A DNA stretch of 58,671 bases, the filler included, from Sphacelaria rigidula (lineage: Eukaryota): NCBI GenBank assembly GCA_964200075.2. It is 9 parts of 9 records of this genome, joined end to end, with 100 filler letters (N's around TTAATTAATTAA, not from the genome) between each part and the next. Parts side by side here need not be neighbours in the genome. Positions count along the whole stretch, not along the records: positions 32,653 to 39,082 come from CAXNAA020020114.1; 8 more parts are not named here. One strand, given 5' to 3'. The notes beneath the pieces are model-generated. The model did not search any database. It was not told the DNA's origin and was given only the letters and a program-made list of their open reading frames with translations. Positions within the stretch are counted from its first letter, which is position 1. Each line of letters begins with the position of its first letter. Position numbers and translations under genes: made by a program. Of this stretch, positions 10,451 through 52,242 are shown in pieces.

Positions 10451-13400
10451 CCTGTAATTTCTGGACACCGGTACAATGGAGCATTGCCAAAATCACCGAC
10501 ACAGGCATTCCCTGAATGACCTCCTGAACCAACTGAATTTGAGGTTTCGATATTATGGTGTCCGAATTTCAACTTACGGGTCGCCCTGTACGCTAATGCC
10601 TATTAATCAGTGCTGCACGACACCGCACTGACTTTCTGTCCTTTGTAGAGCATCATACTGTTTTGGACTGCAGCTCTGCGAGGAGTGTAAGCATGGCGAA
10701 TTTGACAGAAACTGACAGTGAGAATGATCTATACTATCTCCATGTGCAAGAATATGTGCGGCTCATGTGTGGGAATGTGTAGGGCTGCCATACTATTTTC
10801 GGAGTATCTTCCGAGTGTGACGGCAAACAACACACTCTTGTCACTATGGCGGGATAGGGTACTGCGATGCGCATCGCCCATCCTCTCCAACGACCCATCA
10901 TTTCGGCGGGTACTGGGACGTACACCTCTTAGCCTCCTGAAAAATAGCTCATCTTCGGCGGGTACTGCTACCCACACATCTCCATCTCTTGAACAAAATG
11001 TCACCTCTTCAGACACAAAGCCAATCTGCCGCAGCTACGGACGCTCTCTTCACCCTGAAAAAAAACCGACCTTACTGACGTGCATACAGCGGTCTTTTTT
11101 CACCACTCTTCGGGGACGGGGAACTTAACTCCAGGTGAACGAAATGGAAATCGCGATTCCGCGCTTTATCCACCGGCAAACACACTCCGCGTAGGCTCTC
11201 CTGTTTGTATCTGGACAGTTTTTCTCCTTTAATTTGCTCGACGCGACCTAAGAATATCTATGCATAGGAACGTACAATTACTGCAAAGAACGCGACATTT
11301 AAATAACCTCCTTATTTGAGCGAGACTCGAGTCCGCGAGACTCGAGTCCTATTTTCTTTCCGATTTCAGCAGAAATATCCATCCCTTAGACAACGAACCC
11401 CCCGCTGGTGGACTGAGTTGGGCTATGTCACATTTGGGGTTCAGAACAGCTCTTTTCTCGCTACACAAAACGCCTTTTTCTTCATCATGTGGATGCTGGG
11501 CATCTATATAGAATTAGTTCCGGAGAACTCCTGGCCGGTTTTGACCGTGCAGTCAAAATCGTACAGAGTCAGTGTGTGTGCGGTACAGGTATGTCTCCGC
11601 TGGATATATCGGCAAGAAACAGTCGGTGTTCCATCGCTCTCAACTGAACACAATTTACTGCGTGCGACTGATGCCTCTGCTGAGCATTCAACAAGAACAC
11701 TGCAGCAGTGTGAAGCTATGCTGGCAACACATGAGGCATCAGACAGGCGGCTCAGGCCTCGACCAGAGTACAAAACAAGCTATTTGTACCCATGTCATCT
11801 ATGGTTGAATTGCCATGACCAAAATGAGAAATGCCAGTAGACAGCGAAGTAGCCCACCTGTAGTCCACCTGTAGGGGAACTACGTGCTCATTTTGACGGC
11901 CGTAATTGGTCAAAATGCTCATCCCGCGCGTCTCGCGGGAAACTTCCAAATACACGTGGTTGACTTGGTGAGCTTTTCGGCTGATCTGCGGACAGACCCC
12001 CCCCCCCCCTCAAAAACCACCTCCCCCGGCCACTGGGAACCCCCGAATATCTCCGGACTGTCAGCCTGTGAAACTGTTCCGAGGCGACGCTCGCTGTCTA
12101 AGGGTTTAATCCAAATTATTATTGCTCGAATATGTGCATAATGCCAACTTCTCAAGATTGAAATTCTTATTTTGCACAGCGGCAGTTCTTCGCCATTTCA
12201 GGCCAAAGTCTTGCCCTCCCAATTCTTAACTAAATGGAGGGAAAAAACATATTCCGACTGGAAATCAGGTACATACGTCGAATGGGAGGTGCGATCTGTG
12301 ACACTAACCCTTCTCCCATTGGAAAATGACTTGACATACTCGCACTGCCGATTCGGGGTATTAAAGGCACGTGAAAATAAAAATGCAATTCCGGAATCGA
12401 ATCTGCGCTATCGGATTACGGGGGATAGAAATACCTTGCGGCCGAATCGGGCGACGTCAGTCGTGACAAATGCCATGTGGAGGTTTTAGCACATCGAGCG
12501 ACGGGTCCTGACCAATTCATTTGAAGGTAGAACAACCTGCGGGCTAATGTTGCCCCGCTTTTGTTTCGGCTCTTTTAAGTACATTCAGGACCCTCATGAA
12601 GAGTTGAAGAGCTACTGCATGACACGCACGACTATATGGCACACATCTTCAATGCATTGATGTCTCATGAGGAGGTTGGGCCGATGGTCCTAGGGATAGG
12701 AAAAGTAGTCGTTCCCGGGGGTGGTATCCACCGTTTTATCCTGTCGCAAACGAACACTAGTGGTCCTCACTATCCCTAGGGAACATTGTGAGAGTGTCGA
12801 TGTTTTCGGGATATCTCTCATGCGTTCACAAACACCATATAGTCCGCACGCGAACGGCCAATGCATTGAGGAACACCCCCCGGGTGAACGTGTTTTGGAG
12901 AGGAGATATGCTCATCTCATGTTTGGGGAAGGGGGGGGGGGGGGGGGAGGTACTCATGATGANNNNNNNNNNNNNNNNNNNNNNNNNNNNNNNNNNNNNN
13001 NNNNNNTTAATTAATTAANNNNNNNNNNNNNNNNNNNNNNNNNNNNNNNNNNNNNNNNNNNNAGCAAGGGGGGGGGGGGTCATGATGTTGCATGCCATAG
13101 TCATATGGTAAAAACGGGGGGAAGGGTAGAGGGGGGGGGTCGACACTAGCAATAGTACGCGCACCGGGGACACTCACATCAGCAACGACACGCACCATCA
13201 CACATGAAGAGCATACTGGGTTGATGGGAGGGGGAGGGGGCGGGGGCGGGTGTCAGGGGAAAGTCGATAGGGGACGTCATTTGTCTCATCCTTGCCTGAT
13301 AAATCCACTCGAAGCTACCGACAGACGCTTGCCGCGTTTTCCAACTCCTGGCGCCGATTTCCTGAACAGCGCTCTCGGCAATGTCTTTCTGCAGCTTCTC

Positions 13401-16691: not shown

Positions 16692-17783
16692 ATGGGAGAG
16701 TTTCATTTTTCTGACAGTACAGCAGACCAACCGCGGAGAATACGGAGAAGGTCTCGGGTAGAGGTCAATCACGTACGAGATGAGCACGAGCAAGAGCATA
16801 GCAGCAGAGGGCAGAGTACAAATAGCGAATGCAAAGAACAGACGCAACGTATATTTTTAGCTCCACAGGCGGCTTTTGTGAGTAAGTCATCGCAGAAAAA
16901 TAAAAAATCGAAACACCAATCTTCGTTTTCGAACCCGATCCTAAATGATCACTGTTATGACTCATACAACACATTTTCGCTTGCCAAATATACAGTTGCG
17001 CCTTTAGCGTTGTCCTGTGCATCAGCCCGTGTGAGAGTCACGGCCAGAGTAAACGGCACCCCCGCTGAAAAAATCACATTTGATTCCGCAGCAGATGTGC
17101 CCTGTATCAGGAAAAGGTTCATCGATGAATACCCGGTCATAATGGCAGCTGATATAAAGCCAGTACCGCCAGGATCGATAGACCTCAGAAGCGCGGATGT
17201 TTTCCTCATGAAAATTGTAGGTTTCAGACGTTTCGAACTTACGTTAGGGAGAAAAACCCCACCAGTAGAAGCGTTCGCATTGCCTAACTTAGGACCGGAT
17301 TGCCTGTTACTGGACAATTCCGTTATGAGTGCTTTCCAAGCTATACTCGACTGGCAAGCGGAAGAGCTAACATTCCGTGATTCCAGTTTGAAAATCAAAG
17401 CATCGCATCGAAAACAACAGTGTTCACAAAACACAACACACCCCGATACGATGCATTGTTCTGTAGTCAGTGTGAACTGTTCAAACGCTGTTCAAGTTTT
17501 TCTCACGAAGAAATGCAATGTGCCCCCTTAGAGTGAGGTGGCAGTGTTAATTAAAACGGAAAATACCCCGTCACCAACAACAGCAGCCGTCGTTGAGCCA
17601 CGCATAATAACCGAAGAAAACATTCGATCAACCGATATACCCCGAGCGTTCACGCGCATCGTCGTTGCAAAGACGGTGTGCACATGGTCGGCAACAAAGA
17701 AGACGGCAATGGTACAAATCGCCAACCCGTCGAACCGACATGTGAACCTGAAACGTAATACGATTTTAGGCTATATCACCTGA
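16692..17783 (+). pseudogene. Gypsy aspartic protease region
   Basis: ARVNGTPAEKITFDSAADVPCI (D-S/T-G/A protease motif) and CLLLDNSVMSAFQAILDW. In-frame stops at 17531 and 17783. Confidence 0.8.
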
Positions 17784-17811
17784 GTACGAGAAACAAAACC
17801 AGCTACAGTCA

Positions 17812-19310
17812 GTGCAATGGCGGGAAATAAGGTGTCAGAGAGAAAATACGAAAGAGGAATTACGTCCAGCTTTACGCAAAGCTTTCGAAAACACGACCTT
17901 TTCCCCCAAACAATGCTCTCAAGCACTGGATCTTTGCGCAAAATACCGTTCTGTGTTTTCACTTACTCCGCAGGAGTTGGGCTGTTGTATGTTAGATGGA
18001 GCTCGATTTCCGCTCAAACCTGGGACTCAGCCGGTAGACCGAGCACCATATAGAGCAAACCCCAGAGTGCAAGATGCAATCGACAAATGCGTCGACCAGA
18101 TGGAAAAAGATGGTATAGCCGAACAACGCCCAAGCCCGTGGGGATCAGCAGTTACAATAGTCGCAAAAGTAGACGGAACAGCACGATTTTGCGTAGATTA
18201 TCGAGCAACGATCCATAAAATCTTGGTTCGCAAATCATGGCCCATGCCAGCTATCAAAAGTCACATAGACACAGCAGCGGGGGCGAAATTCATAACACTT
18301 TGCAATGTACAAAGTGCGTTCCACCAGATACCAGTGGCGGAAAGAGAAAAAGAGAAAACAGCGTTAGTAACTCAAAGAGGGAAATGGGTGTGCAACCGGT
18401 CACCATTTGGTTTAGCGTGTTCACCCTTTGTCTTTTCACGCATAATGGCACTCTCATTTTCACACTTTGGACCCAAGAGTGGTTTACTAGTGTATATGGA
18501 TGGCATAATGTGTTATTCATCAAGCTGGGAGAGTCATCTCACCCTACTAGAAAGCACGTTCAAAGCACTGCAAACAGCAGGCCTTACACTAAAGCCGACA
18601 AAAATTCAATTTGTTCCAGAGCAAGTCAAATACTTGGGCCATGTACTGTCCGCAGATGGCATCAGAGTGAGTGGTGAAAGAACGAAGGCTATCCTCGACT
18701 TGCCGAAACCCACCAATATCAAAGAGTTGCGATCAGTACTCGGTACAATGAATTTCGTACGGAAATTTATACCAGACTTGGCTACAACCATAGCACCACT
18801 GGGAGATCTCACAAAAAAAGGGGCAGCAAAACAGGTGTCGAAACTATGGAATACTGAACATGATGAAGCCTTCGGAAGAATAAAATATTTGATGACCGAG
18901 GCACCCGTTCTTTATTTCCCAGATTTCACGAAATACTTCACTATAAACGTCGATGCTTCAGACCGTGGGGCCGGGGCCTACGTTTCCCAAAAGAAAGGCG
19001 AAGACGAGGCAATCGTAGCATACAACGACGCCCAAGCCCGCTATTCGCTCAACATGAAAGAATGTATACGCGGTCGTATTAGCGATCCAATATTTTAGGG
19101 CCTTTTTGTGGGGACGTCACTTTACGTGTGTAACAGACCATTGCCGCTCTTCGATATTTGTATGCGATGCAGGATACAAGTAATATGTTGACCCGCTGGG
19201 CGGTCGCATTGCAATCGTATGATTTCACGGTCAAACAAAAACCGGGGAAACTTCATGTTATACCGGACACCCTGTCACGGCTGTTCGCGTTTGAAAAGCG
19301 ACAGGAAGCA
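17812..19310 (+). pseudogene. Gypsy reverse transcriptase-RNase H, inactivated
   Basis: SPWGSAVTIVAKVDGTARFCVDYR, SAFHQIP, PFGL, VKYLGHVLS, INVDASDRGAGA and the frameshifted RH tail (WGRHFTCVTDH...LTRWAVALQSYDFTVK...KPGKLHVIPDTLSR). Catalytic residues are altered: YMDG for YxDD, and LCNVQ at the first Asp. Confidence 0.95.
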
Positions 19311-19592
19311 TAAATCAAGCCGTTGCTTGCGCCGATATGCCGTAACGTCCCAGAAAACCCTGAGTTACAAATAGCTAAGCCACAACATCAGTTGACAGCC
19401 GATCCTAATTTTTGGGTTGAAACATAAAATGAGGTTGAAGTCCCATTTCTCTATTGCAGGGAAGATACGAAAGAGTAACACGGAGCGAAAGTNNNNNNNN
19501 NNNNNNNNNNNNNNNNNNNNNNNNNNNNNNNNNNNNTTAATTAATTAANNNNNNNNNNNNNNNNNNNNNNNNNNNNNNNNNNNNNNNNNNNN

Positions 19593-20815: not shown

Positions 20816-21225
20816 TTGTGCTGCTTCTGTATGCTAGATCTGAGAGACTTTCTGTTTTGTGGTCTTACCGTCTGCTCCTCTTTGTTATTGTTGCTGTTTT
20901 TTTTTTTTTTTTAACCGTGCTGATCGCTCAGGCTAGTGACTTTGCTGCAGCGTGTCCCGTTATCCCTGGTCGATCGGCATACTCTCTTACCCCTGGCCGA
21001 GAAAAACGGTTTCTTCCGAGCCGCTGTTATTCTACTCAAGGCGGTAAGTCATGGGTAGCGGCGGGAAGGGGGGGGGGGGGGGGGGGCACGATGTTGTTTT
21101 TTGTTGTACATGCTATCAATCGGGGCTGAGCGGGAGGCACATGGCTCCGCCCNNNNNNNNNNGGCCCGCCGTTTCCCCTCCCCCCGGACGCAAAAAACTT
21201 CTTTTTTCTTGCTTGGGTTTTTCTT

Positions 21226-23986: not shown

Positions 23987-26900
23987 CATTGATGCTTGAC
24001 CCATGCGGCCGAATGACCGCTAAGAAAATCAGTCGAACCGAAAATGGCCGTAATTCGCCTCTTTTCCGGGGAGAAAACAAAAAAAAAGGAAAATAAATGA
24101 AAAAAAAACGATTTAGCTCTTCTTTAGCTTGCTTGTTTGTACAGAAGCCAGTCACGTCTCGTCCTAAACCACTTTTTGTCACCTTGTCGCTTCTGTCCAC
24201 CACAAAATTCCCAAACCATGGGTCGAATTTGGATGAAATTGGATTCAAAGAGGCCAGACTTGGGAGTCAATGCTGTACCCCGAAATGGTGTACACAAAGA
24301 TATCTCATTATTTCATTTCTTCACCGATCCTAACTGTAATATCATAAGCGCCTTTGCTCGGGAGATACGATCTGCACCCCCGAACCACGTAGAGTTATGA
24401 GACGAAGGAAGCATACGACAAAAACCCCCGGCTTTGACAGCGCTTCTTTGCCGCCTTGGCGAGTTGCCAAAGGAGTGAATTGACTGACCCGCTTGCTCGT
24501 CTCAAGTACATTTTTCTACTGCTGAGCAGGACTGTGGGCTGCAGTGTAGATGCGAACGCTCTATGCTTTTGAGCAGTTACTGTCAAGAATGATCTCGTGA
24601 TCTGCACTCGGAGAAAATCGCTTCTCTGCGCAACGCATGGAAAGAAAAGACAAAAAAGGGAATAAGGCCCGTTGAACCTTTTTCCCCGCCGCGGTTTCGA
24701 AGGCGTTCAATTTTTGTTTTTATTGTCGAGGTGCGCCCGTACCATTTCCTAAAATTAAACGACATGCAGTTTGTTTTGTTTTTTATTCGTCTTGATGTTT
24801 TTTCGGCATATACTGTCAACTCCTCCCAAAGTGACACTCCTCAACACATGACGATTGCCAAAGTGCACTTCTACATGACAGTATGTTGTGCAACGCATAT
24901 CTTCACCGTTTAGTTGCCCCCACCCCTTCCCCCCGTCCCTCCCACATAATAATATGATACTTTGTTGTGCATTAGCATCTTACGTTCGAACCGAAAACAG
25001 CGCATGTGTTCTCCCTCCGTCCCGTAAATAGGCCGGTTATTTTTGCACGGGACATTGACCGTCTCACGATAATGTTTTCCAAAATATTTGATTCTTTCGT
25101 TTTTTTTTTTTTTCAATTGTTCGCGCATTACCTTATCCTACGCGGGTGAATGGCCGGAAGAGAACCAATCGGCCCGAAAATGGCCGTACTTCGCCCCTGC
25201 TCCGGGATTGAGAAAATGTTGAAAGAACAGCAAATAAGCAATTCTGCCTGTCGACCGTCCGCATCGCCGCGGCCTTGTTGGAGTGAGAAGCGACGGTCGC
25301 CGACTCCGACGTTTATTTGAGCAGTTGAGCTCCCCGGTGTCGTCTGCTTGAGCTTGCTGGCAGTTTTCCCACAGTCGTATCGGGTACTCGGGACAAATAC
25401 CGTAGCGCTCGGCGAACTGACCAAAAATGCCCTTTTGACACCCTTGAAGAGCTGCCTGGCGGGAATGGCCAGCGCTATCTATCTCCATTGCCATAGCGTA
25501 ACGGCGGCTCAATGATACTTCGGCGCTCCGTTTACGACATGGGGTGTGTGTGCACGGGAGAGACCATCGTGGTCGGGGTACTTATCGTAGTGGGCGGTTG
25601 GACGTCGAACTCTGCAAATAGCGGACAATTCTGAAACAATAATCAAAACCTTGACCGAAAAATTCCCAAAACTGATCCCGAAATAATATCAAAATATTCT
25701 CCCAACATACGGGAATTTGCGTCGTCGTCAATATTCTCGATGAGGATGACTCCATTTTTTCTTTCCCTTCTTTCTCCCTATGGGCATCTATCCCCATGGC
25801 TTTCTTTTTTTCGATGACCCCAACTACAGCATCCTAGGCACCTTCGTTGAGGAGATGTGATGTGCACCGAAGAACCGACTTGACCTGTGGGACAAATAAG
25901 TGTGTATTTATATACATTTGTATATTTGCTGCCCCCTCCCCCCCCCCCCCCCCCCCCCCCCTTCCCCCCCCCCCGTCGCCGCGGTGTTGTTCCATCTTCC
26001 ACCGTGAGAGAGGGGTAGCAGCNNNNNNNNNNNNNNNNNNNNNNNNNNNNNNNNNNNNNNNNNNNNTTAATTAATTAANNNNNNNNNNNNNNNNNNNNNN
26101 NNNNNNNNNNNNNNNNNNNNNNCATGCATGCGCCTATTGGGTAGGTTCTGCGAAAGGCATTTGCTGATGACACAATTTTGGGTGATGAGTGTGGACATTT
26201 CGGTCAGTTACAACGATATCTTCCGGGGAATATCCACAATACCATGGTCGAATATTTCGTTAGAAGTTTCGCCACCGCAAATTTTTCATGTGTGTAGGAG
26301 TATCACGGATCGATCCAGGGAACGGTCTGAGCCCTAAGGCAGTATTGTGCCTTCCTCCACTTGCTAGGATCAGCCATGTGTCATGTTTCAGTTTCGAACA
26401 TCGGAGGACGGCTTTCCTCCCCTCAGTGCTTCATGCAGACTCCCTTGTACTTCGTTGTCCAGACCTCCATTCGAGTCTAGGCCTAGCAGCAGCAATCAAT
26501 ACAAGACACAACGGCTCTGCAATCCTGGGATTTGTCCTATACTGCTTCCACTGCCTCATCACTGAGGATCCGCTGACCACATCTCTAGTGAGCTCCCGGG
26601 TTAACGATTTTACATAAAGAAGGCAATCACATACAGGTGCCTCGCAACGGTTTGGGGTTATGTACAACGCATCTAGAAGCAGCCAGCTGTATATCCAGAC
26701 AGCTGTTATCGAGAAGCCGTGCCAACACTCTGAGTATGCGCCAATCTTCCTTGAGATCTATTTCATGGTGACCAATCCGAGAACCGAACTCGGGCTTCCA
26801 TAGCCACAATGTGGTATACTGATGAATACACTTCTCCGCTTAGTAGCACTGTGTTTTCAGTCGTGTGAAGACATGGAGAATTTCGAATTTGGGGATTTGG

Positions 26901-30780: not shown

Positions 30781-31304
30781 GACTACATCCCTACGGGTCA
30801 TCCGATCGACATTCCCATCCGGTAACCCCCCATCCTACGTCCACTGCCGAGCTGCCGCATGCTGGTAACCTTGATATTAACATGTACATGGCGCTTTCTG
30901 CCTCCCCAGGAGATTCAGTTTTTAGTTTGGGCAATTTCGATGTGAGGGATAGGATGTTGCATCAGACGAATCCCTGCCTGTTTCTGATTCAGAACTATGG
31001 ATTGCAGACTCGGGTAGATCGCACCACACCCCAGTTACTGAGGCGACTAGTGTACTGCTCACGGATGTGCATGCATTGGAAGGGATTCAGTTTATTCTTC
31101 TCTCTGTTCACCGTGCTCAAAAGAGCCGACGAGTAATCTGCGAGGGAGAAGGTGTACACCTGTTCGACGGCAAGCTACGTTTCGACTACAATGAGCGTTC
31201 CTCATCACAATTTGCCACACGCCTACCATCGACCTACGGACGGATTCCATTAGCCATTCCTGTTGTCGCCACTAAGAGTGATACTAATTCTGCTTCCATT
31301 GGGC

Positions 31305-31540
31305 ACAGCGAGTTAGTGTCAGCAAGATTCCCGCGGACTGTGCTTCTGCTCCACATCGAGTTAGTGTTAGTCCGACCCCCTCGGATTCTGCTTCCATTCC
31401 ACAGAGAGTGATTTGACGGTAAGATTCCCCCGGACTCTGCGTCTGCTCCACAGCGAGTGAGTGTCAGTAAGATTCCCCCAGATTATGCTTCTGCTCCACA
31501 GCGAGTTAGTGTCGGTAAGATTCCCCCGAATTCTGCTTCA
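31305..31540 (+). repeat. 48-bp tandem repeat x ~5 encoding a 16-aa unit (QRVSVSKIPPDSASAP-like)
   Basis: CAGCGAGTTAGTGTCAG(C/T)AAGATTCCC.CGGA.T.TGCTTCTGCTCCA units. Confidence 0.88.
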
Positions 31541-32552: not shown

Positions 32553-32744
32553 NNNNNNNNNNNNNNNNNNNNNNNNNNNNNNNNNNNNNNNNNNNNTTAA
32601 TTAATTAANNNNNNNNNNNNNNNNNNNNNNNNNNNNNNNNNNNNNNNNNNNNAAAAAAAAAAGGAATAAAATAGACAAGAAGACAGAGCCAGGCTCGTTC
32701 CGGCGGCGGGGGGGGCGGGGGGGGAGGGGGGGGGGGCGAAGCAC

Positions 32745-33355
32745 AGACGAAACAAAAACAAACAAACAAACAAACAAAACAACAGGAACAAACGATGAAC
32801 AAAGCAGAGATGGGGACCAAATATAATGCTCTGCGTATCTGGCGTCGGCTATGGCGAGTTGCTGTTGGTACTGTCGGTCCCAGGTGCTGTCGGCGGTGCA
32901 TCTTGGCCTGCAGCTTTCGCGTGCCGTATCGCTGCCTCTGCGTCGTCCTTTTGGCACCAGTCCGCCATAAACCTTTCTGCTCCCTGTCCAACACAGCTGT
33001 GCCACTCTACTGCATTCAAGGCTCTGGTAGTCCAACCCTGCCATTCGATACCGGACGCCTTCATGTCTTCCGCTAGGCAGCGGATCCAGTCCTTGTGCCT
33101 GCCGTTAAACTCTCTTTCTTGCCCCTTCACGGCTATAATTTCACCGAACATGACGTGTTTCGGTATCCGTCCGGGTGACATGCGCGTGATGAAACCGGCA
33201 ACATGGAGTCTCCTCTTCGTCACCGTCGTCTCGATGCTTTCGCACCCTGTCCTCGCGAGGGTCTCTTGGTATAACAAAACGTGGTCTGTGGCGATTGCGC
33301 CTGTGCCATCCAAGACAGCGCCTGAGCAACGCATGGTGGGCCGTGCGAAGAAGAG
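32745..33355 (-). mobile_element. 5'-truncated RTE-like LINE fragment (second subfamily) with (TTTG)n tail
   Basis: LRTAHHALLRRCLGWHRRNR / TDHVLLYQETLARTGCESIETTVTKRRLHVAGFITRMSPGRIPKHVMFGE...KDWIRCLAEDMKASGI. (AAAC)n on the + strand at ~32750-32790. Confidence 0.88.
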
Positions 33356-33453
33356 GACATTAAAAAGCCGTTCCGGTATCTGCGCAGTGCCGTCCTGGGC
33401 ATCTGACTCGTACAGTTGGACTTTGTACTTGTGGTACAGTAGCTCGTACGAAT

Positions 33454-34229
33454 CTAATCTACCCAGTCTTCGTCGGTTGTCGGAGTATCTTGAAAGACGC
33501 AAATAAGTCAAACTGGTAGACACGGGACTACGGGGTTTTTGAAGAAAATGGGTATCAATCGGACGTGACCGGCGATACCCCAGGCATACTTACCTGGCGG
33601 GGGCTCGCCAGTGGTCATGATGACTGGTGACCCCAGGGGGAGCAGGCTCTTGCACTGGCTGAGATAAGCCTGGAGTGCTGTAATCCCTGGAGAATATCCC
33701 TCCGGGGGTATCTCTACCGCATAATTTTTTGCCGGGGAGGTGTCCGCTTGCGGCCCTCCCAACACACACCTGACACAAAAACAACACCGCCCACGGTAGG
33801 ACGAAGGCGATAACACAAACCACGTATGTAATATAAATCAATGCGCACACACCGCTCGTTCCTCTGTCCTAGGAGTACCAGTTCTATCATCATTCTGATT
33901 GCGCTGTCTGCTGCTGTCTGTGCGTACACTACTGCGATGCATAGCTGTGTATTACGGTGTACTCTTCTGCGCGTGTCTGAGGCAGTGGAGGTCCCTCGCC
34001 ACGTACATACATACGGCATACTGTACTGTATGTATACAGTAGTCAGTTTTATCACCCCTACCCTGGCGATGGGAGGGTGAACGCTTCGATTCCGTCACTT
34101 CTTCTCTTATTTCGCTACTATGGTCCTCGTTCTTCAGACTACTTCGTTCGTTGCGTGTATCTTGATCTTCCTTCATCTTTCCCCTTCTTCGCGAGGTTCT
34201 CCCACCATGTGTTTCCGTTTTGCTTTCCT
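33454..34229 (-). CDS. Hypothetical antisense gene: exons 34229-34062, 33944-33849 and 33488-33454 (stop)
   Basis: Three AG/GT-bounded, phase-1-compatible open segments giving ..ESKTETHGGRTSRRRGKMKEDQDTRNERSS..SPSHRQ-AMHRSSVRTDSSRQRNQNDDRTGTPRTEERAV-YTPTTDEDWVD*. No homology recognised. Confidence 0.35.
33515..33546 (+). promoter_or_regulatory. Putative snRNA proximal/upstream sequence element (U1)
   Basis: GGTAGACACGGGACTACGGGGTTTTTGAAGAA starts 71 nt upstream of U1 +1; same motif at the same offset before U5 and U2. Confidence 0.8.
33586..33760 (+). ncRNA. U1: U1 spliceosomal snRNA (possibly a variant)
   Basis: 5' ATACTTACCTGG (5' splice-site pairing); stem-loop I TCGCCAGT-GGTCATGATG-ACTGGTGA; TTGCAC in loop II; Sm site AATTTTTTG at 33723-33731; terminal GC hairpin GGGAGG...CCTCCC. 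Length ~175 nt. Confidence 0.93.
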
Positions 34230-34386
34230 CTGAGTACGAGTATAGATGTCTAGCTTGTGACCACTATCGTGTGGCTGGGTTCGTACGGTATAGCTCGTGA
34301 CAATGCAATGAAATCATGAAAAAATCTAGTCATTTGTCATTTGGGTACTGCCTACTGCAGTGGGTGGGCCAATACCGTGTCATTTT

Positions 34387-34415
34387 AGTAGACTCTGAGC
34401 GACGGGGTTTTCGAA
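34387..34415 (+). promoter_or_regulatory. Putative snRNA proximal/upstream sequence element (U5)
   Basis: AGTAGACTCTGAGCGACGGGGTTTTCGAA; the ACGGGGTTTT core begins 56 nt before +1, as for U1 and U2. Confidence 0.72.
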
Positions 34416-34457
34416 AGTTGGTGTACTCAATCCGGGAAACTCTGCAGGCCTTGTTGC

Positions 34458-34567
34458 ATCTCCGATCCTCTCGCATCACGAACTTTACCCTCGCCTTTTA
34501 CTAGGATAAACCGTGCTGAGAGGATCCCGAAGGAGTTCTTACGATTTTTGACCCCACTCGTGGGGTA
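34458..34567 (+). ncRNA. U5: U5 spliceosomal snRNA
   Basis: Invariant loop 1 GCCTTTTAC (34493-34501) on top of a long stem (GATCCTCTC/GAGAGGATC, CACG/CGTG, TTTA/TAAA with the CCG bulge); Sm site ATTTTTG (34544-34550); 3' hairpin ACCCCAC-TC-GTGGGGT. Length ~110 nt. Confidence 0.93.
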
Positions 34568-34988
34568 ACCAACAACAAGCAACCGAAATCATCAGCTGCC
34601 TGTATGTTTCGTTGCGAACTCCCGTCGGTACTCGTGTAGATGAGTAAGATGACGATCGTACACCAGACGCAGACTTCGCAATTATACAGTAGCCTTTCTC
34701 CAACGACACGCGTAGACCACATAGCCGACACCAACAACAGCATTTTCGAGCACGGTACTGCCTTCGTGGCTGCGACGGGTGTCTCGCTGGTATATCTTGG
34801 TAAAGATCTGGCTGTGGCTGAGGAGAACAATATCTCTTCACACCTCCGACCCCATTTTGGTGCGCAGTCACATGGCAAGAACGACAACAAAGCAGCAGTC
34901 AGCGGTCTGAGATTGCATTCAAGAGTCCTACTCGTAGCGCAACATACTGCACTCGCAGCTTTTTCTCGGTTGCGATCAGCGTGTGATC

Positions 34989-35021
34989 GGTAAAACCGGG
35001 ACTACGGGGTTTTCTGAAGAA
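34989..35021 (+). promoter_or_regulatory. Putative snRNA proximal/upstream sequence element (U2)
   Basis: GGTAAAACCGGGACTACGGGGTTTTCTGAAGAA starts 71 nt upstream of U2 +1; 17-nt exact match CGGGACTACGGGGTTTT with the U1 element. Confidence 0.8.
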
Positions 35022-35059
35022 TGTGGTTCAGAAAAACGTTACATGCACCTGCCTGCAGC

Positions 35060-35241
35060 ATACCTTCTCGGCCTTTTGGCTAAGATCATGTGTAGTATCT
35101 GTTCTAATCAGTGTGAAAACTGATTGACACTCACCGAGTGTCATTTTCACACCTGTTTTTGTGATCGTCGGGTTGGCCGTGCTTGCAGTGCTCCGACAGG
35201 ATTTCCTCGGCATTTCACTACCGCCTTGTGAGGTCCATCCC
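35060..35241 (+). ncRNA. U2: U2 spliceosomal snRNA
   Basis: 5' ATACCTTCTCGGCCTTTTGGCTAAGATCATGTGTAGTATCTGTTCT with branch-point recognition GTAGTA (35092-35097); stem IIa ATCAGT/ACTGAT; stem IIb TGACACTC/GAGTGTCA; Sm-like GTTTTTG; stem III GTCGGG/TCCGAC; stem-loop IV GGC-ATTTCACTACC-GCC. Confidence 0.96.
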
Positions 35242-36813
35242 CTCGGGGACAACTGAGCGTAACTACAACAATGTTCTCCAACAACGCATATACCGAGAAA
35301 AATCACCTTGACTGTCGTACTCGTTACCGCATGCTCCCGCGGCAGCAGACCCCAACAAACAGTGACCACAACAAGACGATAGACATTGAGCACCAGCAGC
35401 AAATCTATACAGTACATGATAATACCATAGTCGGTATTGCGGGCGGACCTCAGGCTTCCCTCGATTTATTATGCGAAATGTCTGGGAAAACGTTTTGAAA
35501 TCGTGACACCCCGATTTTTTCTCTCCCGATTTGGCCGAGTTTGGGGTCGGTCCATAAAATACGTTCCCCGATTTGTTACCCCCGATCTGCCGATCTTCGT
35601 AGTAATCAAAATTGGTGACTACTATCAAAGATGGTCTAACTTAGCCGAGGAAAGCATGCTCCTCTCAGCTGGTGAGAGCCTTGTCAAATGTGCAAAAGAG
35701 ATATGTATGCCTTTAGACACGAGAAGAATGACTGTCAGTGCACCGCAAGGAAAGCTATTGTCGCTGAATAATTGGAAATGTGTATTAAAAAAAACTGTTT
35801 TCTCGCTGTGCTGTGGTGGACCAGTACGTAGCAGGTTGACTGCATGAACAACAGGAATAACTGCGTACCAGCAGGTAGTAGGTTGGCACTAGAACGCCGA
35901 CATACAGCGAGTCATGACTAGTTGGGTAGACAGTGAGTGTGTGGTTAGGATCACCAATGACGAACGACGACGACCCCGACGCAGTTGCCTTGCAGCAGCA
36001 TTAGAAAATGACATATATATCTATATGTATGTGTGTGTTTCATGAATAATTCGTAATAATATGCACAGCTACTGCTTGCTTCCCCCCTGTGAAGCCTGTC
36101 TGTGTTCTACATCTCGATAAATAGACTGAAAACAACAATAGTGACGATGGCAACAACGGTACTGCACTCCATCGGGTAACGGGGATGGTACTAATACTTC
36201 ATTATTTTGATGAAATATTTTCGGTACGGGTCTGAGATACGCACATTTGTCGAAAGTCGACGCTAACCAGCAAGCAAGCAGAATAATCACTTGCGAAGAG
36301 CGCACGCACCCAGATGCACCCGAGGCTCACAGAAAGCATAGCCAGGATCCCAGCACCCCATCAAGCACAAAATCTGCTAAAAATGTCAAAATTTTCGAAC
36401 AGATATGCATGTAGACAAGTTGCAAGGTAGAACGGAAGGGATTAAGGTGAAATGAAAAAGGGAGGTGAAAAAAACGCGCGGGTTTTTGGGGCTGCATTCA
36501 AGCTCCGGCGACACATGTGCGTCCCGTCAGTTCATAATTTCACTCCCCCTCTCGACGGACTGGGCGTACTGCGTACGTACATCTCGATTTTTCAGGCTAA
36601 GATATCGAATGGAGGGACACAGGGGCTAAGCCTGGAGTGCAGAAGACGTAAAGGGCATCATTGACAGAGCGCGGGGGTGAAAACGGGGGAGAAAACAAGT
36701 GCACCATCAGTAGTATAGTTTCGGTGTAGCAGCTACTCCTCCTGCTGTAATGACCACCGAAGGGAAAGATCCAGCACACCAGCACCACCACAGCTGTCGA
36801 AAAAACACCCGTC

Positions 36814-37155
36814 ATGGATGCGGCTCCACACCAGCAGCAGCAGCAGCATAAAGCGGGTGGGCGCACTGGGGTGCGTGGAAAGTGTCATTACATGCACCCC
36901 TGCACTTCGTGCGAAGAGACCCTTGTTTTCAGACTTGTTACCGCCCGAATTGAACGACAACTTGGGTGCTGGGAGTGTGCGCTGGGGCTGGTGGCCGTTC
37001 TTAGGGGATGTCTTGGTTATAGTGGGGGCGACGCGATCTTCTCAACTGTCTCAATTGCTCAAGAGGAAATTTTCGACAAGAGACCGTACAGGAAGAACCC
37101 CGAGCGGGAGCCTGGGAAAGGGGTTGCATTTTCCAGCTACACCCCCGAAGATAAG
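36814..37155 (+). CDS. Probable first exon of an unknown protein
   Basis: ATG in GTCATGG context, 114 open codons with a short poly-Q, ending at an AAG|GTGAGG donor. Confidence 0.5.
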
Positions 37156-38560
37156 GTGAGGCGTGCTCTTCAGGTTGTCGTGTTTATTCCGTTCGGGTAG
37201 TATGTTGTCTCCCTTGTCGTACCATTCTGTTGTGTTGCGCGTGAACTGTCTGTGCACGATACGATCACATATCGCAGCGTACTCTGGGTGGTCTTTTGTA
37301 ATCGTGCTGCTGACATACGGATGACCCGATCTGGCTCATCGCTTTTCTCTGCATTGTTGCATACAAAAAGCTCTGTTGGGACTCACAGACTACACTGTAC
37401 GAACGTGCGCTGTACCTACCTACCGTCTGTGCTCTTTGTGCGTGACGTTTGAACGCATATACTACCTGTTCAGCACAGACATCCAAAGCTGTGTGTGACG
37501 GACGAGGTGCTGTTTGATTAGACTATCGTCTTCTTTCGGGCTTCTTGCATAATACGATAATCTAACTGTTGGGGTTTTACGGCGCATATATAAGCTCCAG
37601 GGCCACGTATATTGTCATGAAGATATTGGGAATCCCAGTACACAAGATTGCAGGTCTGTTCAGAGTTGGTCGGGTTCGGATGTGAGCTTGTATATTTGTA
37701 GAAGATGGCGAGATATATCGGCTGGGGCCGACATAGCTCGCCCATCGTCCAGCACTATCAACTGCTCCCCTCTGCTAGCCAGCAAAAGGAAGTCTAACCA
37801 TCGGTGAGAGATATTGGCTGGTCTGGGTTGGATTGATTGAGTGGGTATCGGAGTTAGAATCAAGATAACTAAGAGAGAAGTGAAGAGCCTATTGCGTGAA
37901 CTTCGTCTGATAGTTGGATGCTGAGCAGGTCACACGGTATCTACAAGTTGTAACAGCCTAACGGTTGTACACTTGCCTGCCAAGCTTGTGCCTTGGGTTG
38001 CAAGCTGTGTCCTTGCATTATACTGCCGCTTGCTCTTTATCACAATATCGTAAGATTTTGCACCCTTCCGTAGGATGAGGGGTGGTGACACGAACCAGGC
38101 TTTGAACCACGGTCTCGAGGAAGAAAGGTTTGATGAAATCATATAGATGGCTGAGCGTGCGTGCGAGAAGCTTGAAAGTCAAACATGTACATACGACGAG
38201 AGTTGTATCGTAGTTTTTTCTTCGAACAAGGCGGGTGCACGGGAAAAAAAATCCCCCACTACCACGCATCCCCCCCCACCCCCACGGAGGGCCGGCAAAA
38301 AAAAGGTTTCTTGCCAGTTTACATTCTCTTCCCTCTGCATTTCCCCTCTCACTTCGTGCTCACAAGCAATGCACGTTGCCACTCAAACACACACTGAATA
38401 CCTTCTTGTTGGGAATACCTGCATGCTGCTGTGGGTTGGCTTGGGTTCATCACACGTGGCCATTTGGATACGCTCAAAAATCCCTCCGCACGAAATTGAC
38501 CCCTCCAAAGGGTTCGGGCTACCCCCTGAGGAGTCATCTCCCTCTGGAGCGTGGATAGTG

Positions 38561-38742
38561 TCCCCCTCCAAAGGGATTAAACACCACTAGAGGAATAGAG
38601 TGACCTCTATAGGGATTTCATCTTGTGTTGGATCCTCCAAAGTGCACACAACCCCTCTATGGGGGCTCCATCTCCCTCCGCCTTCTAGACTGACTTCGTG
38701 TGGGCTGTCCCTCCAGCGGTGTCAAATCCCCGTGGAGGGGGA
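38561..38742. mobile_element. MITE-like foldback, ~180 bp
   Basis: 33-bp inverted repeat: TCCCCCTCCAAAGGGATTAAACACCACTAGAGG versus the reverse complement of CCTCCAGCGGTGTCAAATCCCCGTGGAGGGGGA. Confidence 0.65.
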
Positions 38743-39571
38743 TACCACCATCCACCGAACCTTCGATAGTAGAATGAAAAAGAACAATCAAAACATTCGC
38801 CGCACTTCTTATGTAACCGGGAAAAAAACAACTGTCATTTTGGCCCTTCATCATTTTTCGCCTCAAACGAAGGGTTGGGCGGGTGTTGGCAACTTGGAAT
38901 GACTTCCTCTACTCTTTGAGATCGTTTCGGAGGACCCTTTCGTGTTCCGGAATTCACACTTTTACTTTCGCCAAACTTGCATTTTCAAGAAGAAATGGTC
39001 AAGTTATCAAACTTAACAGTGTTTTCGTGAGATTGAGAGTAGATGATACGATTGAGAGTGAAAAGCGGTCAATCAGTGAATGNNNNNNNNNNNNNNNNNN
39101 NNNNNNNNNNNNNNNNNNNNNNNNNNTTAATTAATTAANNNNNNNNNNNNNNNNNNNNNNNNNNNNNNNNNNNNNNNNNNNNCCCCCCTGTGCAAAACAA
39201 GTCGTAGATTCTTGTGATGCATGTGGGACCTTCAGACCACCGTTCTATGTCGTCATATTTTTCGCCCGAGACGGATTCATCCAGTTCCTCGCTGCTGAGC
39301 CTGTAGATGTAGTCGGCAATTCTGAAGCACAAGGGTGTTTGTAGATAAGAATGGCTTCAGTACTGGTACAGGCGAAGAGGCGATACTGTACCTCAACGGA
39401 AAATCCGCATTGAAAAATTGAAGTGTAAAGAGGGACGGTATTAATTTATCCGCTGCAGGCACTTGATTTCGGTGATACACTAGCTCTGAATCTAGGATAT
39501 GGTTCCCAACAGCACTAGAGGAAATCTGTGTTCTCCGCTTGTGACGTTTTGTTTGGTTACAGTATTGCCGC

Positions 39572-44227: not shown

Positions 44228-46150
44228 GTGCCTCACTGGCTCGTTCCGTCGTCATGGCCGCGTGCGGAGTGTGGTTGCCCGGTGGTGAACGTTATGATTC
44301 GACGAGGGGTGTCGATTGGGATACGGCGAGCTACAGACCCGGATGGATGTAGTGTGTATTTAGGGCTTGTGGTCTATAATAAGAGCTTTTTTGGTCGCTG
44401 GCTAGGCATGCACGGTTGTGTGTGTGCGTATGTGTGTCCTCGCCCATGTATGTACGATATATGTGTCCGGTATGGGTCAGTGAGAACCCCGTGAAATGGC
44501 ACTTGCTTCACGTGTTTCTTTTTCTGTGCAGTACCGTGGGCCCTGTTGTTCGCCATAGCGGTGTGCGAAGTCGTCGATCGTTGCATATGTGTGCGTATCA
44601 CCGGCGATCGTCCTGTGCGTCGTGTGGTGTATGGCGGAGGTGAGGATATTCGGGAGACGCGGGGTGCAGTGAGGGGAGTGATGAAATCTTACGCACCGAA
44701 AAAAAAGCGCATTTGTCTTTTAAACTGTTGGCTGTGGAGTAGTCATTCGAAGTCCTATGAATGCCTTGTGATTTGATTTTAACACCTACGATGAATGCTC
44801 CTCTGTAGTGGTGAACATCCCAAAACGTTCGCCGTCGGAAAAGGATCAATAGCCAACCCCACAAGTAAGGTGTTGGGTGTGCAGGAAAGGGGGTAGGGTG
44901 ATGAAACGTATTCATGCGACTTTTCCGATAGCACGTAACAAATCACGCATGATACGAACAGAGCACGTGATTGTAAATGAGATTAGTGGACGTTGCGTGT
45001 TGGTAGTTTCGGGTCCGTTGGTGTTCAAGAAATAGATATTGAGAGTGTGAGCCTGCAGTAGCAGCAGTTCATGGTTCTCCTTGAATTTCGTATCTGAAGA
45101 TTGCATATACATATCTCGCAATTCCACCGAAGGGGGATCGAAAGGAAACTATGTAAAACGAATCTAGATTTTCACAACAGGAATATTTCAAGTCCAATAC
45201 AAGTTCAACAATGTTTTCGTGAGATTGGGAATAGAGGATACGAAGGGTGAAAAACGGCCAACTAGTGAATGAATCGTTTCAGGTCCGAAATGCCCCACCA
45301 CGAGGCCCGATATGCTTTCTCAAGTAGCTTGCCACTGAGGCCCTTGGTATCCCTGAGCAGGATATCGACGTGTAGCTGTAAGCACGCTAGTGGTAAAGGC
45401 AAAGAAAAGCACACACGGAAAGAAAAAGTGGCTAGGTTGAAGCGAACTACCAAAGTCACTTCGAATCAGCGCTCTCTACTCTTTAACTCACGAAAACGTT
45501 CTTGTTCGTAGGGTTCAAGAATGGGATATACTTGGTAAGTAACAACAAATCGTGCGAATTGAGGTTTAACTTTGAAGTGAGGTTCAAGCCTAAAACAGTG
45601 CTTTCCTCACACNNNNNNNNNNNNNNNNNNNNNNNNNNNNNNNNNNNNNNNNNNNNTTAATTAATTAANNNNNNNNNNNNNNNNNNNNNNNNNNNNNNNN
45701 NNNNNNNNNNNNTCCCTTTTGGGCAATCAGACCGAAAAAATCGTGGGTTTGGTGATTCGAACACGTGATGATTCGTCCTAACCGTGAAATGTTTGTGGTG
45801 ATGCATCTTGTTTCGAAATCCCTTTTCCCGACCAAGCTCACCTAATGTTTTGCACCGCCTCCGCTGCACCGGTGTGGTCGCGAGGATCTTCTGATCTGAA
45901 CCCAGTCTAAAGTTCGGGCCTAGTTGTGGATAAATATTGCTGAGCCGAGCATGTTCACCCGCACCTTGAAGCTCACGACTTCCCCCCTGGGTGCACATGC
46001 GTTGGTGTAACCTCTAACATGTGGTAGTAGCACTTGTCCACCGATTTTCGTGCTACGGCTCAACCGATGTGTAGCGACCTAGGTCTTCTTGCTGCTCGTT
46101 ATTTCATTCTCTCCAATGTGTTTCCTGTCGCTGCAAACGATCGTCGGCAG

Positions 46151-48222: not shown

Positions 48223-49176
48223 GTAAGGGACTCCCGGCGGGGGTGGAGTGGGATACAGTCGCGATAGTTGTAGTTCCGTGTGCGCGTACTACGAGCTGGG
48301 CCAGCCTAAAAACGGATGAGCTCTCAAAGCAATATCTCGTCGACACAGACGAGTTGGGCCGTGATCCGCATATCGTTTAAGTCGTCCAATCAAGGGGAAG
48401 GTGCCCATCGCTGCTCAAAAGTCTGGGCCAATAGTTTCTCGTTGATTAAACCCCTTGACTAGTAACTCCTATACCTTACGGAGATGACGTCCGCAATAAA
48501 ATCTATATGAAACCCCGAACGATGTATTCAGCGGGGGATGATGCTTTTTGGTGTGGACGTTCCCTGGAGCACGGGGAGACGATAGATACCCTCACTTTCA
48601 CCTAATCCGTAATCTATCTCAAGATATGGCGCACATTAGGTTTTATACTAAAATCAATATCTTACGAGCAGAGGTGCTAGATGCTTCAAAACTGGATATC
48701 GCGTCTCAGTTTTTGAGAGTTGTGCTATGAAATTTGTATGGAGAAGCGCTAGGGCATAATAAAATAAACGAAACAGCTCTTCCCCCCCCCTCTTTTTTTC
48801 ATTTTTTTTTCGTATTTTCAGTGGAGTTTTGAGAAGAAATCAACATCGCTCTTGGGCCTCATCTCAATTTTTTAGCTCAATTTTTAGAAATGTGATTTGA
48901 AATCAAGCATGGAGAACCACGAAGGTGTGCCGAATAAAAGTAAAGCCTTCATTTTTTTTTTCATAGAGGTTAGGGCGTTCTCGTGAAAGAATGGTCTTCA
49001 CCATACTAGAACGCCCTAAACCAGTAAAGAAAAATCAACCTGACCACTGAGTTTTGTGAAATATGCCCTAGCGAGAGCCCACACAAAATTTCAATACACA
49101 AAGATCGAACGTGGGCCGGGGAGTGGCCTGCAAAATACTGTTCCGATTTTCTACCGACCCGTTTTTTGAAAGGCGA

Positions 49177-51651: not shown

Positions 51652-52242
51652 TCGATGATCTCAGATGCCGTAAGGTATTATTAAAAAATTGTCCTGATTT
51701 TTTTGTTCCCCTTAACTTTGTTGCAAATAATTGATCAGTAAACACTGACAAAAATCGAAAAGTCTGGTGGGCTTTGCAGGGTTTATATGTAATTTGCCTC
51801 TGCTCCTTACCCGCTCTGTCCTGATGGCCTCAGGTCTCCATACCAAGGGTCTCTGTCCACGGCAGCTGACCCGATTCGCCAACACTTTGACAATAAACCA
51901 GGGGACAGGTGCCTGCCCCCCCCCCTCCCCCCCCCTCAAAAACTGATATTTTTGATCTTGGGGCCTACATGCCAAGAATGTTTTCACGCTGCCCCCTGAT
52001 GCGACCCTGATATATATTGCTCCGTCTCGAAAGGGATGCGTGGTCAACTGTCAAACGACTAAGGCAAGCAACAAATGAGTACGCGCCACTCCCCCCCCCC
52101 CCCCCCCCCCACCACCCAAACCTCGTCCGCGGGCTCGACATCNNNNNNNNNNNNNNNNNNNNNNNNNNNNNNNNNNNNNNNNNNNNTTAATTAATTAANN
52201 NNNNNNNNNNNNNNNNNNNNNNNNNNNNNNNNNNNNNNNNNN

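Follow-up and report, generated by a model that had tools for sequence, protein, structure and literature searches.

A compact, co-oriented cluster of U1, U5 and U2 snRNA genes, each preceded by its own TATA-less upstream element

Searching the window (the whole 58,671-nt stretch of DNA analysed here) with cmscan against Rfam at gathering thresholds revealed exactly three matches, U1, U5 and U2, all on the plus strand and all covering the full model. Their starts are the same as those given by the first-pass annotation for three co-oriented snRNA genes (33586, 34458 and 35060), and under the covariance models it had proposed for verification (RF00003, RF00004 and RF00020) U1, U2 and U5 all scored above the curated thresholds. 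Together the three genes span 1,658 nt, or 1,737 nt counting the first promoter element, and are separated by spacers of 697 and 493 nt. The locus is therefore a mixed cluster, with three types of snRNA gene lying within a few kilobases and each having its own promoter. Its features are as follows (all coordinates refer to the window).

33507-33543, plus strand: PSE/USE-like promoter element upstream of U1; invariant core ACGGGGTTTT at 33530-33539
33586-33760, plus strand: U1 snRNA gene (RF00003; 92.9 bits, gathering score 69.5; E = 6.2e-22; model positions 1-166 of 166)
33588-33596, plus strand: U1 5' splice-site recognition sequence ACTTACCTG, placed by motif coordinates
33650-33655, plus strand: loop of U1 stem-loop II, TTGCAC
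33723-33731, plus strand: U1 Sm site AATTTTTTG
33761-33790, plus strand: A/C-rich U1 3' flank with ACAAC at +21, a weak candidate 3'-end signal
34379-34415, plus strand: U5 upstream promoter element, core ACGGGGTTTT at 34402-34411
34458-34566, plus strand: U5 snRNA gene (RF00020; 65.0 bits, gathering score 40; E = 1.1e-8; model positions 1-117 of 117)
34493-34501, plus strand: invariant U5 loop I, GCCTTTTAC
34543-34551, plus strand: U5 Sm site GATTTTTGA, followed by the 3' hairpin
34567-34590, plus strand: A/C-rich U5 3' flank with ACAAC at +6, a weak candidate 3'-end signal
34981-35017, plus strand: U2 upstream promoter element, core ACGGGGTTTT at 35004-35013
35060-35243, plus strand: U2 snRNA gene (RF00004; 140.6 bits, gathering score 46; E = 1e-28; model positions 1-192 of 192)
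35092-35097, plus strand: U2 branch-point recognition sequence GTAGTA
35155-35161, plus strand: U2 Sm-like site GTTTTTG
35244-35275, plus strand: U2 3' flank with ACAAC at +6 and +22, a weak candidate 3'-end signal

All three genes were said to keep their key functional elements and their Sm or Sm-like sites, and every one of these motifs could be located. U1 has the pairing sequence ACUUACCUG near its 5' end and an Sm site ahead of the last hairpin, U5 has the invariant loop I GCCUUUUAC together with an Sm site, and U2 combines the GUAGUA branch-point recognition sequence with an Sm site. At model position 30, U2 shows one departure, with U in place of the A of the Rfam consensus, while the Rfam alignment places a 17-nt insertion in stem-loop II of U1 and flags several U1 pairs as non-standard. 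None of the three genes is truncated or followed by a poly(A) tail. At 36627-36640, 14 nt from inside U1 recur exactly, with an E value of 0.17; this was taken as chance.

A 37-nt repeat family forms the upstream element, with one copy before each of U1, U5 and U2. Its invariant 10-mer core occupies -56 to -47 in all three genes, with 46 nt from the end of the core to +1. The U1 and U2 copies are identical at 24 of 25 positions (E = 2e-5; blastn within the window), a match that, snRNA self-matches aside, was the only significant one when the three loci and their spacers were compared; the U5 element is 73% identical to the U1 element over 37 nt. When the three genes were aligned without gaps and anchored at +1, 25 of 100 columns were invariant, including 10 consecutive ones. 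An invariant run of 10 was never seen among 20,000 shuffles or 20,000 random real triples, for which the longest run was 5. The claim that every gene has its own upstream element is thus borne out and sharpened to a single word at an identical offset, from a consensus built on three genes of a single locus.

Different snRNA genes that share a conserved proximal element, set at a fixed distance of about -50 to -60 from the transcription start, show the pattern of a PSE/USE of the Pol II type. In keeping with the Pol II form, no TATA box (TATA[AT]A) occurs between -100 and -1 of any of the three genes; by the rule described for human and green algae, this absence indicates a Pol II-type snRNA promoter (PMC8287931). 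The published USE core (CCCRTA or TCCCA type, sought as CCC[AG][TC][AT]) is missing from the sense strand between -120 and -1 of all three genes. USE consensuses reported elsewhere include AACCCRTAA in Blastocystis and CCCRTAA in Ostreococcus (PMC8287931, Table 1). Unlike these, the USE-like word lies antisense here: the opposite strand of the core reads CCCGTA in the U1 and U2 copies, which fits CCCRTA, and CCCGTC in the U5 copy.

Several further promoter-like signals were considered and set aside. A second block, TCA near -30, was invariant in a gapped MAFFT alignment only and not in the anchored ungapped one, and is left unclaimed. Across the window, the 14-mer with up to two mismatches matched 4 times against 1.45 expected (the three genes plus 49042-49055) and the 10-mer with up to one mismatch matched 8 times against 4.5 expected. 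The extra site at 38724-38733 on the minus strand is missing the rest of the element and was rejected, as were the remaining extra sites, including 49042-49055. The promoter core followed by a degenerate U1/U2 5' end matched one locus among public metagenome contigs and one among genome contigs, the former in a bacterial-looking coding contig and the latter in a Microcoleus contig; neither had an Rfam match and both are regarded as chance.

No clear 3' box was found downstream of the three genes. What they have in common at this end is an A/C-rich flank with ACAAC between +6 and +22, a motif that was picked post hoc and has a background of 0.08 per 60 nt.

The window itself consists of nine pieces of 6429-6431 nt, joined by 100-nt linkers of 44 Ns, TTAATTAATTAA and another 44 Ns. 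The term 'one contig', used initially, is thus inaccurate for the window but correct for the cluster, which lies entirely within one piece (32653-39082) and has 6.43 kb of contiguous context. The linkage stands because the cluster sits wholly inside that single piece. U4 and U6 had gone unrecognized at first, and neither was found at E ≤ 1 in the window, where the contiguous DNA around the cluster amounts to 6.43 kb; the window as a whole likewise gave no 5S rRNA match at E ≤ 1, which leaves the cluster without 5S linkage there. No second copy of U1, U5, U2 or the element was present in the 0.9 kb upstream, the 3.8 kb downstream or the other eight pieces. Head-to-tail repetition of the unit was accordingly not seen within the 6.43-kb piece or the other pieces, although a longer unit is possible.

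The neighbourhood of the cluster is rich in transposable elements (TEs) and poor in genes. A retrotransposon remnant 0.3 kb upstream of U1 was 74% identical to a Sphacelaria rigidula protein, and the closest named relatives of two transposon remnants in the window were from Sphacelaria rigidula and Ectocarpus sp. The open reading frame upstream of U1 was resolved solely by an exhaustive HMMER search. Pfam returned nothing for the open reading frame upstream of U1 or for the others tested in the cluster piece (13, up to E ≤ 5). For the same upstream reading frame, the ESM Atlas gave weak matches only (best, 0.87) and a word-indexed search among longer proteins gave no match. Some part of the stretch was shared by 20 of 22 listed sequencing runs, with at least half of the sampled words found in 3; no RNA run was listed as sharing any of it.

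Very probably, this is a cluster of three separate, functional U1, U5 and U2 genes with TATA-less promoters of their own, located in a nuclear genome that is most likely that of a brown alga. Judged from the DNA sequence, the three would be independent snRNA genes driven by a PSE/USE of the Pol II type rather than parts of a polycistron or retropseudogenes. Independence is indicated because an element of its own precedes each gene at a constant offset, no TATA box is present and control triples never matched the conserved run, while the absence of poly(A) tails and truncation argues against retropseudogenes. Most likely, the genes came to lie next to one another when gene units that carried their promoters with them were locally duplicated or transposed.

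By analogy with such genes in animals, plants and green algae, the 37-nt element would be bound by a SNAPc-like factor, which would place RNA polymerase II at the A of the conserved GC|AT start. 4R-MYB proteins, the class that includes SNAPc4, have been reported in brown algae (PMC8854648). The short transcripts would then be capped and their 3' ends cut shortly past the terminal hairpin, where the A/C-rich flank may act as a guide, and Sm proteins would be loaded on each transcript at its Sm site. In splicing, U1 would be expected to pair with 5' splice sites and U2 with branch points, with loop I of U5 holding the exons.

It is quite conceivable that the genes are real and their linkage is a neutral accident of duplication or transposition, not conserved past close relatives and of no use for co-regulation. 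The spacers resemble each other and the rest of the window in the promoter element only, and the retrotransposon remnant and TE-rich, gene-poor surroundings also point in this direction. So does the variation among animal families, with U1-U2 linkage reported for Soleidae and absent from Scophthalmidae and Pleuronectidae (PMC3464664). Against this, all three genes share the same orientation, have similar spacing and retain intact promoters. In many lineages, too, snRNA genes of different types are repeatedly found linked, possibly because this brings some advantage. The locus was originally interpreted as co-regulated. This is not demonstrated; a shared promoter type would co-regulate the genes whether linked or unlinked, and no function of the linkage itself has been demonstrated.

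The remaining explanations concern the extent and the activity of the cluster. The 1.7-kb cluster could belong, as one unit or as the edge, to a larger tandem array with many copies that was collapsed or cut in assembly, as fish snRNA clusters are tandem arrays (PMC3464664) and the contiguous sequence spans just 6.43 kb. We consider this unlikely: the sequence upstream, downstream and in the other eight pieces holds no second gene or element copy, a unique TE remnant lies directly upstream, and a repeat unit would need to exceed about 5.5 kb. Less likely again is that the active genes lie elsewhere and that the cluster includes at least one silent variant or pseudogene. Many eukaryotes carry numerous variant snRNA genes, and the departure at position 30 of U2 and the insertion in U1 could be read in this way; yet all three genes give full-length, high-scoring model matches with intact functional motifs, retain the promoter core at an identical offset, something not expected of decayed copies, and lack the poly(A) tail or truncation of retropseudogenes. 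One strand and close spacing would also suit three RNAs cut from one polycistronic precursor starting upstream of U1, but U1, U2 and U5 require a 5' cap that is gained at transcription initiation. Moreover, a separate copy of the promoter element stands equally far from the 5' end of all three genes, which makes this highly improbable and agrees with the initial view that the cluster is probably not polycistronic.

The reading of three independently promoted genes can be compared with clusters already in print, since mixed U1/U2/U5 linkages are, as the first-pass annotation held, known in animals (PMC3464664) and are found in plants as well (PMC545797). Soleidae flatfishes have a U1-U2-U5 linkage and many other fishes have U2-U5 tandem units (PMC3464664). 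Like these units, the present cluster combines different Pol II snRNA genes over 1-2 kb on one strand, each with its own PSE; a 3' box has been proposed in the spacers of the fish units. The fish units, however, are tandemly repeated multigene families, tied in soles to 5S rDNA as well (PMC3464664). Here, by contrast, there is one copy in 6.43 kb, no 5S, the order U1-U5-U2, an unrelated (stramenopile) lineage and another promoter word.

Arabidopsis clusters are likewise small, mixed, co-oriented and independently promoted, with intergenic distances of a few hundred nucleotides (PMC545797). They differ in linking two gene types rather than three, and plant promoters combine a USE with a TATA box, their spacing depending on the polymerase (PMC8287931), whereas the genes described here have no TATA box. 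For Drosophila, U1-U2, U2-U5 and U4-U5 linkages are listed (PMC3464664) and four snRNA clusters are mentioned (PMC545797). The mixed-type linkage of Pol II snRNA genes and the PSE at about -55 are similar to those seen here, but the reported element sequence is different. In Euglena gracilis, a U3 snoRNA gene is linked to a U5 snRNA gene (PMC2784804), again a protist linkage of different small nuclear or nucleolar RNA genes, although the RNA types and the supergroup differ and the Euglena genes are multi-copy. At the level of the promoter, the short conserved element at a fixed distance of about -50 resembles SNAPc-dependent type-3 or PSE/USE promoters (PMC8287931).

U1, U5 and U2 are ordinary housekeeping genes that are essential for splicing, and with mixed snRNA clusters already known in Arabidopsis, Drosophila and fishes, the arrangement is unlikely to surprise a specialist. 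For brown algae the first-pass annotation knew of no such description, and our literature search also found none. Nor did it find a description of snRNA gene organization or promoters in brown algae or other ochrophytes; the species list of PMC8287931 may bear on this novelty. In the available part of its text, a large comparative study of brown-algal genomes omitted snRNAs (10.1101/2024.02.19.579948). The locus provides curated U1, U2 and U5 sequences for the brown-algal lineage, and its U1-U5-U2 order offers a simple synteny marker that can be scored across brown-algal genomes.

The most useful by-product of the locus is the promoter word, a candidate for the promoter element of Pol II snRNA genes in brown algae; it could be applied to finding other SNAPc-type genes and to small-RNA expression cassettes. 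More tentatively, and with less confidence than in the reading of three separate genes, the 37-nt element might be a general TATA-less snRNA promoter of brown algae, undescribed so far, with U1-U5-U2 as a conserved synteny. Its likeness to the pan-eukaryotic SNAPc word CCCRTA would then, in this still doubtful scheme, lie solely on the opposite strand. According to a published screen, the analysed stramenopiles besides Blastocystis and Proteromonas showed no USE conservation (PMC8287931). If the element were indeed general in brown algae, it would explain why that screen lacked a conserved USE in most stramenopiles, and it would make it possible to search this lineage for its other SNAPc-dependent genes, including U4, U3, MRP and possibly telomerase RNA.

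We screened the whole window with Rfam covariance models (cmscan, curated gathering thresholds), which returned exactly three matches, all on the plus strand and each covering its model end to end. They form a compact, co-oriented U1–U5–U2 cluster of independently promoted spliceosomal snRNA genes in a probable brown alga. The cluster measures 1,658 nt; 697 nt separate U1 from U5, and 493 nt separate U5 from U2.

Genes of the snRNA cluster and their motifs
33586-33760, plus strand: U1 gene; Rfam 92.9 bits (threshold 69.5), E 6.2e-22; ACTTACCTG at 33588-33596, Sm site at 33723-33731
34458-34566, plus strand: U5 gene; Rfam 65.0 bits (threshold 40), E 1.1e-8; GCCTTTTAC at 34493-34501, Sm site at 34543-34551
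35060-35243, plus strand: U2 gene; Rfam 140.6 bits (threshold 46), E 1e-28; GTAGTA at 35092-35097, Sm-like run at 35155-35161

The finding of the first-pass annotation is real and its essentials were correctly read: the three different snRNA genes that it placed within ~1.7 kb were recovered as full-length matches at identical starts, all three exceeded the gathering thresholds in the Infernal comparison with Rfam U1, U2 and U5 that it had proposed, and the key motifs and Sm or Sm-like sites were all located in the sequence. Two departures from the Rfam consensus were seen, namely a 17-nt insertion (versus 2 nt in the model) in the distal stem-loop II of U1, and U for A at model position 30 of U2, directly before the branch-point recognition sequence.

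Nine pieces (the joined record parts, 6429-6431 nt each) make up the window, together with eight identical 100-nt linkers (44 N + TTAATTAATTAA + 44 N) and a separate 10-N gap at 21153-21162, and genomic neighbourhood is not implied for features on separate pieces.

Linkers between pieces
6432-6531, 12963-13062, 19493-19592, 26023-26122: first four linkers
32553-32652, 39083-39182, 45613-45712, 52143-52242: remaining four linkers

The three genes are genuinely linked, since the cluster lies wholly within the sixth piece (32653-39082); the earlier wording "one contig" is accurate for the cluster but not for the window. Sequence truly contiguous with the cluster extends for 0.9 kb on its upstream side and 3.8 kb on its downstream side. 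Permissive cmscan of the whole window (E ≤ 1) detected no U4, U6, minor-spliceosome RNA or 5S rRNA, in agreement with the earlier failure to recognise U4 or U6, and added three unrelated sub-threshold matches, all outside the cluster; ARAGORN found no tRNA in the window. With flanks this short, the absence of U4 and U6 from the contig carries little weight. GC content was 0.476-0.499 across all nine pieces. Long G or C homopolymer runs (12-25 nt) occurred close to several piece ends, and also upstream of a transposable-element remnant (12930-12962, 13063-13085, 32700-32740 and 52100-52142); they may be native to the genome or artefacts of assembly or sequencing.

Each gene had been credited with its own upstream element, and this proved to be the same element in every case. 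A repeat finder identified a three-member, 37-nt family at 33507-33543, 34379-34415 and 34981-35017; identity to the U1 copy is 73% for the U5 copy and 70% for the U2 copy. Inside it, the 10-mer ACGGGGTTTT is invariant in all three copies, always with exactly 46 nt between its end and the first base of the gene (+1); the start-site bases GC|AT are likewise invariant in all three genes. When the three 100-nt upstream regions were aligned ungapped on +1, 25 of 100 columns were identical, including 10 consecutive ones, a run that no control reached in 20,000 shuffles or in 20,000 random triples drawn from the real window (longest control run, 5). When the loci and spacers were compared with the whole window by local blastn, the one significant cross-match was between the U1 and U2 promoter elements (24/25, E 2e-5), so duplication of a block does not account for the shared element. 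No TATA-like hexamer was found within -100 to -1 of any of the three genes. A minus-strand region 3.3 kb downstream of U2 (38440-38740) is dense in repeated GGAGGG and TTTGGAGG words; a 9/10 match to the core within it was rejected, as the remainder of the element is absent.

In the established scheme summarised in PMC8287931, the promoters of U1, U2, U4 and U5 genes are built on a proximal or upstream sequence element (USE) recognised by SNAPc, and in human and green algae such a promoter recruits Pol II when it is TATA-less. Table 1 of that paper gives USE consensuses that include AACCCRTAA (Blastocystis), CCCRTAA (Ostreococcus) and TCCCAWCATC (Galdieria), and the paper describes the USE as conserved in Blastocystis and Proteromonas, unlike the other stramenopiles analysed, a set that may lack brown algae. 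The pattern CCC[AG][TC][AT] was absent from the sense strand of all three upstream regions, whereas antisense CCCGTA, which fits the USE word CCCRTA, lies inside the conserved core of the U1 and U2 elements (CCCGTC in U5). As a lead only, the promoter element may be either unrelated in sequence to the USE or a USE-like core in inverted orientation.

The fixed-distance element, the lack of TATA and the Sm-class RNAs fit the SNAPc/Pol II scheme, and on these grounds we take each of the three genes to be an independent Pol II transcription unit. A SNAPc-like factor would bind each upstream element, Pol II would transcribe each gene, and each transcript would then be capped and 3' processed. The U1, U5 and U2 RNAs each need a co-transcriptional cap, which, together with a promoter for every gene, excludes a polycistron and strengthens the earlier view that the cluster is probably not polycistronic. 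Retropseudogenes were ruled out by the full-length genes, the lack of a poly(A) tail and the presence of promoters. No convincing 3' box was found among the three 3' flanks; all three are A/C-rich and carry ACAAC within +6 to +22, a motif chosen post hoc with a window-wide background rate of 0.08 per 60 nt. Brown-algal MYBs are reported to include 4R-MYB proteins, the class of plant SNAPc4 (PMC8854648). The co-regulated locus proposed in the first-pass annotation is, as far as an effect of linkage is concerned, a hypothesis.

Neither the sixth piece nor the other eight contain a further copy of the genes, spacers or promoter elements, which excludes a tandem unit shorter than ~5.5 kb; a longer unit, or a collapsed array, is possible but improbable. 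Pattern scans gave one match each in metagenome and prokaryote-genome collections; both lacked an Rfam match and were dismissed as chance.

The cluster adjoins a minus-strand reading frame in the same piece (32849-33589) with 662 relatives at E ≤ 1e-3. Among 10 relatives scanned with Pfam, RVT_1 was present in 8, always N-terminal of the matched part, and an integrase or RNase H domain in none, so the homologous part (~32852-33292) represents the C-terminal tail of a reverse-transcriptase protein. Its sequence points to a remnant that is probably a 5'-truncated non-LTR retrotransposon, ending ~215 nt before the U1 promoter element. The closest named relative, among the two closest overall, is a protein of the brown alga Sphacelaria rigidula (about 74-75% identity; 74% over 91 residues). 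Past the remnant's stop codon, the tail region (32653-32800) contains a (CAAA)n microsatellite, long G runs and an A run on the plus strand. The third piece carries a Ty3/gypsy-type RT–RNase H frame (17770-19098, plus strand; RVT_1, RT_RNaseH_2) cut by the piece end. Among the best 120 of its 842 matches, the top named relative was an Ectocarpus sp. protein (48% identity), with named animal and plant matches at 31-39% and unnamed ones at 57-67%; two of ten looked-up clusters for relatives of both retrotransposon frames bore a name. One 66%-identity match falls in a 90% cluster that includes an Ectocarpus sp. protein. Although transposons may pass from one species to another, the agreement of the two families makes brown-algal origin the most plausible interpretation. 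Elsewhere, a minus-strand frame in the first piece (2850-3215) encodes a zinc-binding domain of cytidine/deoxycytidylate deaminases (PF00383, E 8e-9) and probably represents a host-gene exon, and imperfect direct repeats in the fifth piece (31304-31539, plus strand; 91-nt unit, 68-84% identity to the reference copy), spaced 97 and 48 nt start to start, suggest an underlying tandem period of ~48 nt.

Mixed snRNA clusters are already known, and the U1–U5–U2 cluster is not a new kind of system. Reported examples include seven U1–U4 pairs and one U2–U5 pair in Arabidopsis, their members separated by a few hundred nucleotides (PMC545797), a U3–U5 linkage in Euglena (PMC2784804) and, bearing out the linkages earlier mentioned for animals, common U2–U5 linkage in fishes, U1, U2 and U5 linked in Soleidae, and U1–U2, U2–U5 and U4–U5 linkages in Drosophila species (PMC3464664). 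As in the first-pass annotation, which knew of no brown-algal case, our literature search, which reached few subscription journals, found no account of how snRNA genes are arranged in brown algae, nor of their promoters. The words 'cluster' and 'promoter' are both absent from a 2008 survey (PMC2396436), a Phaeodactylum small-RNA study treats, in its accessible part, a single U2 locus (PMC4247016), and a large brown-algal comparative-genomics preprint states that the five snRNAs were explicitly excluded from its spliceosome analysis (10.1101/2024.02.19.579948). Of what is new here, the most useful is the candidate promoter element, whose core keeps a strict 46-nt distance from each gene.
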